DNA of 64,000 nt from Eledone cirrhosa (taxonomy: Eukaryota), in NCBI GenBank assembly GCA_964016885.1, contig OZ024762.1, forward strand, positions 22,382,001-22,446,000, written 5' to 3'. Position numbers and translations under genes: made by a program. The notes beneath the pieces are model-generated. The model ran no database searches. It had not been told where the DNA came from and saw only the letters and a list, made by a program, of their open reading frames with translations. Shown here in pieces: positions 271-62,230 of this stretch (position 1 is the stretch's first letter; every line of letters starts with the position of its first letter).

Positions 271-435
271 GGAACGAGTAGGACCCCGACGGCTAAGTCC
301 AGAATTAGCCGTCGAAACGGCTTCAGCTCAGCCGTCGGGGTCCTACTCGTTCCTATTACCCACTCTACTACCCTAAGTATTGAGTACTTTGGTGCGTTAT
401 GGTCCACCTGGTTCCTTACCACATTTCTTCCGTTA
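271..435 (+). mobile_element. PLE family A terminal (pLTR) fragment with short inverted arm, in (TA)n
   Basis: Matches the 3' end of the element at 10134-12496; 271-293 is the reverse complement of the AGCCGTCGGGGTCCTACTCGTTCC segment; TA repeats on both sides. Confidence 0.85.
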
Positions 436-1612
436 TATATATATATATATATATTGGTAAACGGAATAGAAAATGCTGACAAATTGTTCACAGTTGAAAA
501 ATGGTTTAATTAGGAATAAAAGAGTATTAGTGATTGTATGGGTTAGTATTCAGTTGTGGTTTTAAGTTTTTAAGTTTTTACCGGTTGCGCATTTCTAAAT
601 GCTTTACAAAAATAATTTTGAGATAGAGTGTCCGTGCTGTTTGCTCGGATCTGATTAGTTTTGGGAATTCTACCTGTTTTTATGTTAAAAAAGTGGCTCC
701 AGCGTTATTTTTGTGTTGCAAAAATGCTTGTGGTCAAAACAATTTTGATTGGTCGGTAGAGGTCATGTGAATGTAAAAAGTTGATTTTGCGCCAAGACTG
801 TTTTTATGTTAAAAAAGTGGCTCCAGCAAAAATTCTTGGTATATATATATATATATATATATATATATATGTGTGTATGTGTGAACGTATGTACATTTTA
901 TTAAGGCTAAATAGTGAGATATCTTACTCTGGAGTTTCGGTTGTTTATCACAGGATCGTCTGGTAAGAAGATATATATATGTTATATGTATATATAAAAT
1001 ATATGTTATGTGTATATATATAAAATATATATTATATCTATATATATAATATATATATTTATATACTTATATATATATATACCCATACCCCAGTCGTTTT
1101 TATGAAAGGTGGGTGAAAGTGGCGAGAATGGCCCGTGTGAATGGGCCTTCTCTTTACATAAGCCTGTAGGTGGAAAAGAGGAAGGAACGAGGGAGCACCC
1201 CCTCTCTGTGCTCCTGAGGAAAAGGGTTGCACACTTTTTTCGGGGGTGTGTGCGACCCCCCAAGGCGCCTCCTCTCTATTGAGGATTTTGTTATAAATTT
1301 TATTTTTTGTTATATTTTATTTTATTTTTATATTTTGTGTTATTGCGCACGCCTTTTTGTGTAAACTCCCCCCTTTGTACTTGGCCCACTTTTGATGCCC
1401 TGGTGGCAAATAAAAGAAACATATATATATATATATATACCCATACACACACATACTTATATATATATATATATATATATATATATATATATATATATAT
1501 AAAGACAATCTATCTAAGTTTCACTCTGAATAGCCAGATTATTCAGTGAGATACCGGACAGTTAACCTTGGGATAAGACCTAAGGTCATATCGGGTCAAC
1601 ACTGACTAAACC

Positions 1613-3057
1613 CTGGTGGTGGTGGTGGTGGTGTTGGTGGTGGTGGTGGTGATGGTGGTGGCTGTGGTGGTACTGGTGGTGGAGGTAGTTGTTGTTGTGC
1701 GGCTGGTGGAGGCTATAGTACTGGTGGTGGTGGTGGTGGTGTTGGTCGTGGCGGTGGTGATGGTGGTGGTGGTGGTGGTGGCTGTGGTGGTGCTGGTGGT
1801 GGAGGTAGTTGTTGTTGTGCGGCTGGTGGAGGCTATAGTACTGGTGGTGGTGGTGGTGGTGGTGTTGGTCGTGATGGTGGTGGTGGTGGTGGTGGTCGTG
1901 GTGGTGGTTGCGATGGTGGGTTGATGGTGGTGGTGCTGGTGGGTGGCGACTATGGTGGTGGGGTGGCGAGTGGAGGCTATGGTGGTGCTGATGGTTTGTG
2001 GTGGTGGAAGCTATGGTGTTGCTGATGGTGGTGGAGGCTATGGTGGTGGTGATGGTGGGGGGGAGAGACTATGGTGGTGGTGGTAGCGGTCGTGGTGGTG
2101 ATGGTGGTGGTGGTGTCAGTCGTGGTGGTGATGGTGGTGGTGGTGTCAGGCGTGATGGTGGTGGTGTCATTCGTGGTGGTGATGGTGGTGGTGGTGTCAG
2201 TCGTGGTGGTGATGGTGGTGGTGGTGTCAGTCGTGGTGGTGATGGTGGTGGCGGTGTCAGTCGTGGTGGTGATGGTGGTGGTGGTGTCAGTCGTGGTGGT
2301 GATGGTGGTGGTGGTGTCAGTCGTGGTGGTGGTGTCAGTCGTGGTGGTGTCAGTCGTGGTGGTGATGGTGGTAGTGGTGTCAGTCGTGGTGGTGATGGTG
2401 GTGGTGGTGTCAGTCGTGGTGGTGATGGTGGTGGTGGTGTCAGTCTTGGTGGTGGTGTCAGTCGTGGTGGTGTCAGTCGTGGTGGTGGTGTCAGTCGTGG
2501 TGGTGTCAGTCGTGGTGGTGATGGTGGTGGTGGTGTCAGTCGTGGTGGTGATGGTGGTGGTGGTGTCAGTCGTGGTGGTGATGGTGGTGGTGGTGTCAGT
2601 CGTGGTGGTGATGGTGGTGGTGGTGATGGTGGTGGTGGTGTCAGTCGTGGTGGTGGTGATGGTGGTGGTGTCAGTCGTGGTGGTGATGGTGGTGGTGGTG
2701 TCAGTCGTGGTGGTGATGGTGGTGGTGGTGTCAGTCGTGGTGGTGATGGTGGTGGTGGTGTCAGTCGTGGTGGTGGTGTCAGTCGTGGTGGTGTCAGTCG
2801 TGGTGGTGATGGTAGTGGTGGTGTCAGTCGTGGTGGTGATGGTGGTGGTGGTGTCAGTCGTGGTGGTGATGGTGGTGGTGGTGTCAGTCGTGGTGGTGAT
2901 GGTGGTGGTGGTGTCAGTCGTGGTGGTGATGGTGGTTGTGGTGATGGTGGTGTCAGTCGTGGTGGTGGTGATGGTGGTGGTGTCAGTCGTGGTGGTGATG
3001 GTGGTGGTGGTGTCAGTCGTGGTGGTGATGGTGGTGGTGTCAGTCGTGGTGGTGGTT
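1613..3057. repeat. GGT-rich minisatellite; 30-bp unit GTCAGTCGTGGTGGTGATGGTGGTGGTGGT from ~2100
   Basis: Visible tandem units; explains the stop-free ORFs in four frames. Confidence 0.9.
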
Positions 3058-3122
3058 TCTTTATTGTCCACAATGGGTTCCTATTAAGAAAAAAACATTA
3101 AGACCGACACATGATAAAGTAT

Positions 3123-3688
3123 TGAATGTGTGTGTATGTGTATGGTGTGGTGGGCGTATATGTGTGGTGTGGTGGGTGTATGTGTGGTGTGGTGGGTGTA
3201 TATGTGTGTGTATGGTGTGGTGGGTGTATGTGTGTGTATGTGTGTTGTATATGTGTGTGTATGGTGTGGTGGGTGTATATATGTGTGGTGTGGTGGGTGT
3301 ATATGTGTGTATGGTGTGGTGTGTGTATATGTGTGTATGGTGTGGTGGGTGTATATGTGTGGTGTGGTGGGTGTATATGTGTGCATGGTGTGGTGGGTGT
3401 ATCTATGTGTGGTGTGTGTATATGTGTGTATGGTGTGGTGTGTGTATATGTGTGTATGGTGTGGTGGGTGTATATGTGTGTATGGTGTGGTGGGTGTATA
3501 TGTGTGTATGGTGTGGTGTGTGTATATGTGTGTATGGTGTGGTGGGTGTATATGTGTGTATGGTGTGGTGGGTGTATATATATGTGTGGTGTGGTGTGTG
3601 TATATGTGTATGGTGTGGTGGGTGTATATGTGTGTATGGTGTGGTGGGTGTATATGTGTGTATGGTGTGGTGGGTGTATATGTGTGTG
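3123..3688. repeat. ~26-bp GT-rich minisatellite (GTATATGTGTGTATGGTGTGGTGGGT)
   Basis: Visible tandem units. Confidence 0.85.
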
Positions 3689-3997
3689 TTAACTTTGCCT
3701 TTCATCCTTACAGGGTCGATAAAATAAAGTACCAGTAAGACGCTGGGGTAATTGCTGGCCTTGTGCCAAAAGTAGAAACAATTATATTATAACATTATAT
3801 ATTACAGGGGCGGTGGATTGGCAGTATCGGTAGAGGGTCGGACGCCATGCTTTCCAGCATAGTTACGTCCCTTAACGATCTGAGTTCAAATCCCGCCGAG
3901 GTTGACTTTGCCTTTCATCCTTACGGGGTCGATAAAATAAAGTACCAGTAATGCACTGGGTAATTGCTGGCCTTGTGCCTAAAGTAGAAACAATTAT
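3688..3997 (+). mobile_element. tRNA-derived SINE (Nin/Deu-like central domain): 5'-truncated copy plus full copy at 3807-3997
   Basis: A-box-like TGGCAGTATCGG, B-box-like GAGTTCAAATCC, central GCCTTTCATCCTTACGGGGTCGATAAAATAAAGTACC, ATT tail; about 12 copies in the window. Confidence 0.85.
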
Positions 3998-60320: not shown

Positions 60321-60376
60321 TACCTGATGATGTCACCGGATTCGTACTGAACCCGGTCATTGAAATGATCATAGTA
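60321..60376 (+). ncRNA. Type I hammerhead ribozyme
   Basis: TAC-CTGATGA-TGTCACCGG...CCGGTCATT-GAAA-TGATCA-TA-GTA then AATAAA. Confidence 0.8.
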
Positions 60377-60611
60377 TAATAAACCTTTCAAGGATTTACA
60401 CCAGTACATGCCTCCTGTTATTTTGTAATAATTAACTCCGTGCTCGCACCACCAACTACACAAACGAAGACAGGTGAGTTGCATTACGTTGAGTGCTTTC
60501 CATGATATTACATCGAGGTTCACCACACAGAATGACCAGTTCTATCCAGTGGTGAACCAACAAACCCAAATATATATATATATATATATATATATATATA
60601 TATATATATAT

Positions 60612-60803
60612 AGGAGAAAGTATGACCCCGGCGGCATAGCTCAAGCCGTTTCGACGGCTATTTCAGACCAGAAATAGCCGTCGAAACGGCTTGAGCTCTG
60701 CTGTCGAGGTCATAGTTTCTCCTATTACCCACTCTACTACCCTAAGTATTGAGTACTCTGGTGCGTTATGATCCATCTGGTTCCTTACCACAACTCCTTC
60801 ATT
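60612..60803. mobile_element. PLE family A variant fold-back fragment
   Basis: Arms meet at ~60665; TA flanks. Confidence 0.8.
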
Positions 60804-61856
60804 ATATATATATATATATATCATTAAAGCGAAGTAATACCTGTGATGGTTGGGAGATCACTAACGAAGGACCCCATTATTCATATATATATGTATATAT
60901 TTATATATATATAATATAGCATTATATGCAAGCATATGTGTTGCGTTTATGTATAACAAACATGCATTAGCCTCGTTATGGATGTTTCAAGCTGTGACTA
61001 TCTGACAGCAATTACTATAAGCCGTCAACACACCCAGACGGTAGTGTTTCGGGGTTTTTTTTTCTATTGTAATAATCTTTACTTATTTCGTAATGAGGGA
61101 AGTATAGGTAACAACTCACAAATATACGTCTACACATACATGAGGTAAAACTTACAGATCAACCAGAACGGATGCATAGATAGATAAATGTATAGATAGC
61201 TTGATAGCTAGCAAGCTAGATAGATATATAGATAGATAGATAGATACATACATACATACATACATACATACATACATACATACATACATACATACATACA
61301 TACATACATGGTGGCTGCCAACTCGTTTTCGAGTACGGCCACTACTTTATATCCATGTAGGAGAACCCCTACCGATGCGCTGAACGAGTGTGACTTTTTA
61401 GTCCTGCCAGCGACTTGAAAACTCTGGTACAAACACTACACTTGTGACAATTATTGACACATACTGCTGGGCCCATGGTCCCATGTGACGACAAGTGCAG
61501 AGAGATCTCCAGATATAAAGCAATGCCTGTGCCGTGAAGCTTTTATAGTGAGCAAAGGCACTTCACAAAGCCAGTCCCACTCTCTTAACCAAGATGATGT
61601 TTACCAAAAAGAAGAACAAGTCAACATCATTGGATACCATCAGGGTTGCAGGTGTTATATCAGAGTTTTCCTTCTCCTAGTATGTATGTATGTATGTATG
61701 TACGTACATACATACATACATACATACATACATACATACATACATACATACATACATACATACATACATACATACATACATACATACATACATACATACA
61801 TACATACATACAGATAAATAGATAAATAGATATAAACATATACCGATATATATGCA

Positions 61857-62230
61857 GAGGTTATATTTAATTTGTTGGGATTCAACAAGCTTAAACATTT
61901 TTTATAACTGATATAAAGCACTCAACAGATTAGTGGAGTAAATACACAATATATTAATAAATGGAAATTATATTTATAAAACCATATTTATTTTATTATA
62001 CATATTTCAAGGACAACCAAGGCAAATTATGGTGCGCTTTCATCAGATAATCCAGGAAGCTCCAACCGTTAAGGTTGTCTTTTTTTCCGGGTATGTCAAT
62101 ATTTATTAATAAAACAAATCTGTATTTTATCTGATGAAAGCGCACCATAATTTGCATTCGTTGCCCTTGAAATATGTATAATAAAATAAATATGGTTTTA
62201 TAAATATAGTTTCCATTTATTAATATATTG
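61857..62230. mobile_element. Family B fold-back element with HHRs at 61990-62050 (-) and 62124-62187 (+)
   Basis: ATTTTAT-CTGATGA-AAG...CTT-GAAA-TATGTA-TA-ATAAAAT. Confidence 0.85.

Follow-up and report, generated by a model that had tools for sequence, protein, structure and literature searches.

Introduction

Penelope-like elements (PLEs) with a GIY-YIG endonuclease (EN+) are known to insert with an inverted 5'-truncated copy and a one-sided tail (Craig et al. 2021, PMC8557442; Adineta Pen2a, PMC3846280). The Penelope transcript starts inside the upstream pseudo-long terminal repeat, or pLTR (PMC2377424, PMC6765202). In vitro, a Penelope-like protein cuts and extends both target strands, starts reverse transcription at two internal sites that bound the tail and uses uncleaved RNA (PMC11167929). 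A circular template was proposed earlier to explain PLE tandems (PMC4209133), and both the regeneration of the pLTR and the role of the hammerhead ribozyme are stated to be open (PMC2377424, PMC8557442, PMC11167929). Here, we describe small fold-back inserts in (TA)n runs of a 64-kb window of Eledone cirrhosa (the whole stretch of contig OZ024762.1 from 22,382,001 to 22,446,000), whose genome has a size of 3.0 Gb. The GC content of the window is 29%, and simple repeats are plentiful.

The data support the assignment of these inserts to the retro-insertions of TA-targeting PLEs. They are head-to-head pairs of element end pieces. Their outer ends are fixed, as is an inner stop in the three families tested, and they probably represent cDNAs that ran off the capped 5' end of the element RNA.

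Fold-Back Inserts and Their Parent Elements

The sequence-only reading of the window had listed 15 inserts sharing one layout. All of them are present where it had placed them, and 13 consist of an inverted arm, an unpaired tail of 60–123 nt on a single side and alternating TA on both flanks. The other two deviate: the insert at 58730 has the layout in a degenerate form, with an arm-to-arm likeness of only 70%, and the insert at 58075 folds back, but has neither a tail nor a pure (TA)n flank. Larger inserts of the same layout are located at 10135–12494 and 46866–51796, and a lone arm at 26200–26342. Fold-backs of at least 50 bits were found in 18 of 129 non-simple segments of the window and in none in each of 20 shuffles, which excludes a chance origin. 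Sequence comparison gives nine families, where at least six had been claimed. Every family checked has two fixed outer ends, namely the tail end and a tail-less end 56–92 nt further in. Target-site duplications are unreadable within (TA)n. An Rfam scan revealed no ribozyme among the 150 matches listed of 642, all of which were microRNA (miRNA) hairpin models under the gathering score.

Five of the listed inserts (271, 4543, 41586, 59003 and 60612) belong to family A. They had been traced to a PLE at 10134–12496, and they do match the 3' end of 10135–12494; that element, however, is not the source copy but itself a truncated 2.4-kb fold-back. Among 56,786 candidates, 150 relatives of its open reading frame (ORF) piece at 10594–11049 were scored. 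Two of the loci (L093 and L094) contain an open 717-aa frame of reverse transcriptase (RT) and endonuclease between pLTRs, with the RT aspartates and YIG at residue 606. Both domains were identified by motif reading; a Pfam search of three ORFs matched no family. The protein contains RWR at 37, DKT at 117, CxCX5C at 572, CxxC at 670 and CxH at 698, and no CCHH was seen by eye. Judged from its sequence, the family A parent has the single ORF of an EN+ PLE, RT followed by a C-terminal GIY-YIG domain, the motifs of the Hydra clade of C-terminal EN+ PLEs and a predicted pLTR hammerhead. Neptune, the first guess for its clade, was dropped after the motif check. The parent forms partial or full tandems with pLTRs, an inverted copy and a tail, and in ORF-bearing copies the tail is just that portion of the pLTR which leads into the ORF leader. 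A second, unrelated open frame of RT and GIY-YIG (519 aa, L097:1-1560) represents another PLE group.

In other families, the arms adjoin related ORFs on the same strand at two loci (family B), two loci (C28), three loci (D) and one locus (E). With families A, B, C28, D and E linked to ORFs, 11 of the 15 inserts belong to ORF-linked families. For C38, G44, HI and F58, no link to an RT/endonuclease ORF was found in about 1 Mb of fetched loci, in which few copies were sampled.

The Fixed Inner Stop of the Arms

Positions with a minus sign are distances from the tail end, and those with a plus sign are leader positions. A 35-mer query from the family A tail gave 16,121 exact matches; the first 64 listed, all on contig C1, were analysed. 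These loci were picked by the tail only, replacing an earlier sampling by a long-arm query, which had favoured long arms and given the false impression of a smooth arm-length range. Alternating TA directly follows nearly all of the 64 tails, and at 40 loci the inverted arm begins precisely at -78.

The 64 loci contain 104 arms, of which 30 end inside -131, 67 at -131 to -142, none at -143 to -198 and seven beyond. In other words, 67 of the 74 arms reaching -131 end by -142, a limit referred to below as the edge. A further 66 arms came up by chance at other loci, and 55 of these do not extend past -142. Read depth drops approximately 12- to 45-fold across the edge in four public sequencing runs, and in run X1 there are 36 contigs with loose ends at -138, the consensus starting with the complement of G. 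Arm ends also cluster at -260 to -278 in family B and at -153 to -161 in family D (30 loci each); 22 of the 100 rows listed for family B stop at one base, and two stop one base inside. The edge base was read through in approximately 80 (D), 75 (B) and 40 (A) of 100 rows examined by eye. The edge lies in hammerhead loop II in family A, at the start of stem I in family D and approximately 85 nt upstream of the core in family B. In all three families, the edge base, which lies at -138 in A, -161 in D and -276 in B, is an A after two pyrimidines; an A after pyrimidines is an initiator-like motif. Both arms in families A, B and D end at a fixed base, so they are not random debris. In family E (loci L062, L093, L128 and L172), the arms likewise seem to end on an A preceded by pyrimidines, and L062 and L093 have the same palindromic joint.

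In the first 100 rows of each of three genome-wide listings, the base that precedes the edge A was counted by eye wherever it deviated from the parental one. G precedes the edge A in 14 of 23 cases in family A (four read-through variant rows dropped), 8 of 10 in family D and 8 of 22 in family B (one row dropped). At other stop positions, the counts are 25 of 112 in family A and 2 of 29 in family D (Fisher p 6e-4 and 3e-5, respectively). When ambiguous rows, in which G possibly comes from the other arm, are dropped, the excess in family D persists (5/7, p 1e-3). An extra G marks capped full-length L1 insertions (PMC11702581), and by analogy, the G at the edge is likely to result from cap copying. 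The edge is thus likely the capped start of the element RNA.

Short inserts prevail: 59 of the 64 unbiased family A tailed arms are at most 142 nt long, and 16,121 tail matches stand against 147 tail-to-ORF junctions. This bears out the suggestion of the sequence-only reading that such hairpins are the dominant product of TA-targeting PLEs. As a rough estimate from 11 tailed arms in a 350-kb random sample, family A inserts number on the order of 100,000 genome-wide. These and the other families will resemble miniature inverted-repeat transposable elements (MITEs) or miRNA hairpins in annotation.

Long Copies, Chimeras and Arrays

Of the 147 exact junctions of the family A tail with the leader, 70 were examined. 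In a set of 40 loci, two were not scorable and 32 continue into the ORF, with starts ranging from -43 to beyond -2000 and none at -131 to -142. The edge is passed by 29 of these 32 copies (p 2e-19 versus the tail sample), and no scored inverted partner stops there. At the other 30 loci, 25 copies continue into the ORF, none of them starting inside -180. Since none of 29 ORF-bearing copies stops at the edge, it is no fixed roadblock.

The remaining 11 of the 70 loci have a short leader piece. Most of them are chimeras, a rare type of insert: one piece runs to between -127 and -137, or to about -97, where the sequence switches to leader positions +64 to +448, and the following piece again goes no further than the edge. 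Three jumps (L150, L265 and L267) leave from the predicted hammerhead cut, with which the -97 joints coincide. The chimeras jump into the leader after the edge; therefore, their templates carried the ORF leader.

Two kinds of arrays were found. A single insert between (TA)n runs (L166 + L167, G000:C1, 437.198–437.214 Mb) contains approximately 4.5 full 3.53-kb units with 99.7–99.8% identity and a short inverted tailed arm. At L163:1291-3522 (G000:C2, ~356.03 Mb), a 299-nt unit of family A pLTR and leader, starting at -139, occurs in seven tandem copies. The latter array has a 20-nt deletion in hammerhead loop II with both core halves kept and is retrozyme-like, derived from the family A PLE. 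Three or more direct repeats of approximately 160 nt, related to the family HI tail, are present at 24886–25407 of the window and possibly represent a retrozyme-like tandem.

Proposed Mechanism and Alternative Templates

We propose that the RT-endonuclease would nick both strands of a (TA)n run, and each nick would prime reverse transcription at one of two internal sites, approximately 60–280 nt from the RNA start. Both cDNAs would run to the cap, often adding C, and their ends would be joined through short homologies or blunt ligation. The resulting stub, having no upstream promoter, would likely be a dead end. If a single linear mRNA were simply run off, some full-length copies should begin at the edge; as none were seen, a second class of template must be assumed. 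This template would have to run uninterrupted across the start; a circle formed by hammerhead cutting and ligation is one candidate, read-through transcription of a tandem array another, and either could give long copies, pLTRs and arrays. Both templates fit the data and, as the source of most stubs, so do the mRNA and solo-pLTR transcripts. A stop at the capped RNA start would thus explain why most products are dead stubs and why a second, continuous template is likely needed.

Several observations weigh against this run-off model. The missing full-length copies starting at the edge contradict simple run-off on linear mRNA. The initiator match is a loose motif, and only about 34 of the 84 long family A copies have a TATA-like box 29 nt upstream. 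The ends in family A are spread over 11 nt, with more peaks at -132 and -134 that are not initiator-like, and arm lengths within an insert are uncorrelated (rho -0.08, n = 40). The G excess falls to 7/16 (p 0.12) in family A when rows whose G may stem from the other arm are dropped, and it is borderline in family B (p 0.056 against 20%). As for the step in the sequencing runs, a cut site close to the edge introduces bias into the restriction site-associated DNA (RAD) reads, and the sample behind the contig runs is possibly the one used for the assembly itself. Finally, edges were mapped in three of the nine families.

A more specific form of the model, which we put forward only tentatively, compares the stubs with strong-stop DNA. 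Minus-strand strong-stop DNA of LTR elements is a short run-off cDNA from an internal start, which is tRNA-primed and not integrated. The stubs would be the integrated strong-stop DNA of PLEs, made by run-off on capped linear mRNA, and only hammerhead-cut, circularised RNA would give long copies, pLTRs and arrays. If so, the family A start site would split the 5' hammerhead in loop II. Cutting at the 5' side would then require the absent half to be supplied by the 3' end of the same RNA, a possible reason for the ratio of about ten stubs per long copy. The stubs would also map the transcription start of every family to the base.

The capped start may also belong to another donor. Most stubs would then be copied in trans from short non-coding RNAs of the thousands of truncated promoter-bearing pLTR copies, transcribed into their flanks, as a linear partner resembling a short interspersed element (SINE). 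About a tenth of the arms pass the edge and would keep the promoter, the Drosophila 3' pLTR holds everything that transcription needs (PMC2377424), and the absence of edge stops in long copies agrees with these RNAs offering no second repeat for a jump. However, the chimeric stubs contain ORF-leader sequence, which is missing from solo pLTRs, and young ORF-bearing family A copies have the very haplotype that is commonest among small arms. Such a donor is therefore rather unlikely.

The edge might instead be an uncapped RNA end or a state-dependent block (a nuclease cut, a bound protein or a fold), with the extra G as ordinary non-templated addition, which is common in RTs. In family A, hammerhead loop II contains a hairpin, and the ends are indeed distributed over its 3' strand. 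This explanation seems improbable, as the differing places of the edge relative to the hammerhead in families A, D and B indicate no shared fold, the edge is not the predicted hammerhead cut, long cDNAs freely cross it, and the excess of G does not extend from the edge base to neighbouring stops.

Apex Joints and the Origin of the Paired Arms

The 39 small family A fold-backs are 99–211 nt long and have 38 distinct joints, mostly with overlaps of 0–8 nt or short fillers. Some joints recur: one pair was found among the 39, and among 100 listed rows there are joints present six times (plus one with a substitution), five times and three times. One recurrent joint position spans two subfamilies (L187 and L104 versus L196, L018 and L127). 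A minority of inherited joints is possible. The sequence-only reading had expected apex junctions to be either recurrent, as in mobile units, or unique, as in ordinary debris, and neither option fits, for the joints are made anew at each locus, yet both arms end on a fixed base.

The recurring joints might be taken to indicate independently mobile hairpins, MITE-like or retrozyme-like, copied whole with their apex, as had also been suggested. With 38 of 39 joints differing and the main haplotype shared with ORF-bearing copies, this idea does not hold up and is very improbable. The joint position shared by two subfamilies is consistent with convergence from fixed ends, single arms and inserts with two tails terminate at the same positions, and the family A stubs lack half of the ribozyme. 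The inserts also differ from MITEs in that one end bears the unpaired 60–123 nt tail instead of matching terminal inverted repeats, and length and interior are not uniform. Non-LTR retrozymes consist of units in direct tandem, and every unit has a full type I hammerhead, whereas inverted pairs are found here, and the family A stubs lack the 5' half of the ribozyme.

Alternatively, one cDNA could fold back and self-prime the second arm, as was proposed for the palindromic joints of rotifer elements (PMC3846280). Several joints are near-perfect palindromes, but either arm may be the longer one, and joint spacers reach 15 nt or more. Both arms of L238 end at the edge base, each with its own G, and the outer end of the second arm is fixed at a known type of RT start, which makes self-priming hardly credible. 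A further reading, terminal inverted repeats of a DNA transposon, rests on the superficial hairpin shape and TA flanks and can be dismissed given the unpaired tail at one end, the variable centre and the arms that run into RT and GIY-YIG ORFs, a refutation covering families A, B, C28, D and E and not the four without an ORF link.

Hammerhead Ribozymes

A ribozyme on each strand had been expected in some of the hairpins. Intact pairs are present in two of the 15 inserts, 55875 and 61857, and in none of the remaining ones. A type I scan detected a single intact hammerhead in three inserts (5348, 33222 and 58075) and none in 38075, 44385 and 58730; 28133 and 57133 each contain one variant motif, seen by eye only. 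The five small family A inserts carry the 3' half of the hammerhead only, the 5' half being missing. In the 84 long family A copies, the three-way fold and a conserved core can be recognised, with position 3 being U in 41 copies and C in 41, and position 8 being A in 83; half of the copies have the U3–A8 core variant with a long loop II. For a hairpin transcript of 61854–62230, base pairing of the hammerhead with the other arm is predicted. Hammerhead cleavage was considered as the cause of the main edge and rejected: the predicted cut is at -97 versus -138 to -142 for the edge, and unbiased stops are not enriched near -97.

Family C38 has, at 38130–38165 and 38365–38400, a motif that resembles the C28 hammerhead in its 3' part, although the tail would place it on the other strand. 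More hammerhead-bearing or fold-back repeats are located at 40860–40940, 46540–46680 and 57820–57882.

Other Features of the Window

The features are listed in Table 1. In addition, an abundant repeat of 170–200 nt forms direct and inverted clusters (3688–4025, 5963–6392, 18566–20150, 32118–32682 and 42689–42886); BLAST shows no relationship between it and the fold-back families. At 39489–40562, there is another inverted-repeat family, with (TA)n in its interior. It is common genome-wide, no tail was seen in it, and it may be a true MITE; a minimal hammerhead match lies within it at 40247–40289. Frames at 41952–42500 resemble by eye the C-terminal end of what we take to be an ORF of a long interspersed element (LINE) of the RTE type.

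Table 1. Fold-back inserts and related features in the 64-kb window (window coordinates; strand left empty where none is assigned).
Position	Strand	Feature
271–433	+	Family A stub: tail-less arm and tailed arm starting on the edge base (-138)
4541–4750	+	Family A stub of three pieces; tailed arm starts at -138, preceded by G
5348–5633	-	Family B fold-back; intact minimal hammerhead at 5478–5542 on the minus strand
8513–8862	+	Older tail-less family A copy, end portion; homology reaches back to ~8050
10135–10421	-	Large family A insert: inverted tail-less arm
10422–12494	+	Family A copy, 5'-truncated: broken ORF end, 3' untranslated region, pLTR, 78-nt tail
10594–11049	+	GIY-YIG endonuclease fragment, Hydra-type linker
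12307–12402	+	Family A complete type I hammerhead, long loop II; predicted cut at 12397/12398 (presumed cleavage)
12353–12357	+	Edge: stop of short arms, -142 to -138; 12357 likely main transcription start (putative)
12417–12494	+	Tail bounded by fixed outer ends -78 and -1, likely RT start sites
26200–26342	+	Lone tailed family A arm flanked by (TA)n runs, no inverted partner
28135–28333	+	Family C28 fold-back, tail 66 nt; elsewhere the family follows endonuclease ORFs
33223–33677	+	Family B fold-back; intact hammerhead only at 33478–33543
38075–38529	+	Family C38 fold-back, tail ~70 nt; ORF link not found
41588–41774	-	Family A stub, diverged subfamily
44381–44687	-	Family G44 fold-back, unpaired side ~120 nt; ORF link not found
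45814–46104		Family B insert: short tailed arm and longer tail-less arm with hammerhead at 45990–46055
46866–51796		4.9-kb fold-back of another family; endonuclease ORF ends at apex; one hammerhead per arm
55877–56568	-	Family HI fold-back; hammerheads on both strands; 107-nt duplication in tailed arm; ORF link not found
57135–57327	+	Family D stub; tailed arm starts one base inside the family D edge
58075–58345		Family E fold-back, no tail; intact hammerhead only at 58245–58308
58736–58903	+	Family F58 degenerate fold-back; ORF link not found
59004–59232	-	Family A stub; additional short pieces at apex
59591–59700		Family D fold-back; one arm stops on the edge base, with three G next to it (element strand)
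60613–60802	+	Family A stub; fold is a single hairpin with a free tail
61854–62230	-	Family B fold-back; intact hammerheads on both strands: 61993–62050 (minus), 62123–62188 (plus)
62429–62698		Family B insert: short tailed arm and tail-less arm

Comparison with Known Systems

The inverted layout with a one-sided tail is known for PLEs. Neither a fixed stop with cap-like features nor a division into copies that halt at the edge and copies that cross it was described in the open-access full text searched, with subscription papers and supplements outside the search. With a base-exact stop and a cap-like G in stubs and none in long copies, the question of the pLTR and the hammerhead becomes simply testable.

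Described EN+ PLE insertions share with the inserts of the window the head-to-head arms, an optional tail at one end, 5' truncation and (TA)n targets. However, the tails here are 56–123 nt rather than 30–40 nt long, the main product is a stub rather than a long copy, and truncation clusters at one base, which is not reported in the parts of PMC8557442 and PMC3846280 considered here. Family A agrees with the Hydra clade (PMC8557442) in the RW[K/R], DKT, CxCX5C, CxxC and CxH motifs, the pLTR hammerhead and (TA)n insertion; it differs in its unit of 3.53 kb, compared with "generally under 3 kb", and in the U3–A8 core and long loop II, the assignment being made by motifs.

The Poseidon element PAc of Anolis (PMC11167929) shows in vitro the cutting and extension of two strands, two internal RT starts bounding the tail and the use of uncleaved RNA, and 5' truncation of its template shortens the product. 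An in vivo stop at the transcription start and two template classes are not described in the portion of that work considered. The opposite-strand hammerhead pairs of Schistosoma, 100–700 bp apart (Cervera and de la Pena 2014, PMC4209133), likewise come from truncated PLEs and have the U3–A8 core. The circle is a tentative proposal there, whereas here genomic counts split edge-stopping from edge-crossing copies.

Animal non-LTR retrozymes (10.64898/2026.07.22.740005) are also ORF-less, pLTR-derived, hammerhead-bearing and dependent on a PLE protein, but they form direct tandem repeats with a complete ribozyme per unit, unlike the inverted pairs described here, often with half a ribozyme. In L1 twin priming (PMC11702581), two cDNAs from both target ends are also joined at their 3' ends, and an extra G occurs at the capped end; however, L1 inverts adjacent non-overlapping parts, whereas both arms of the Eledone cirrhosa inserts copy the same stretch.

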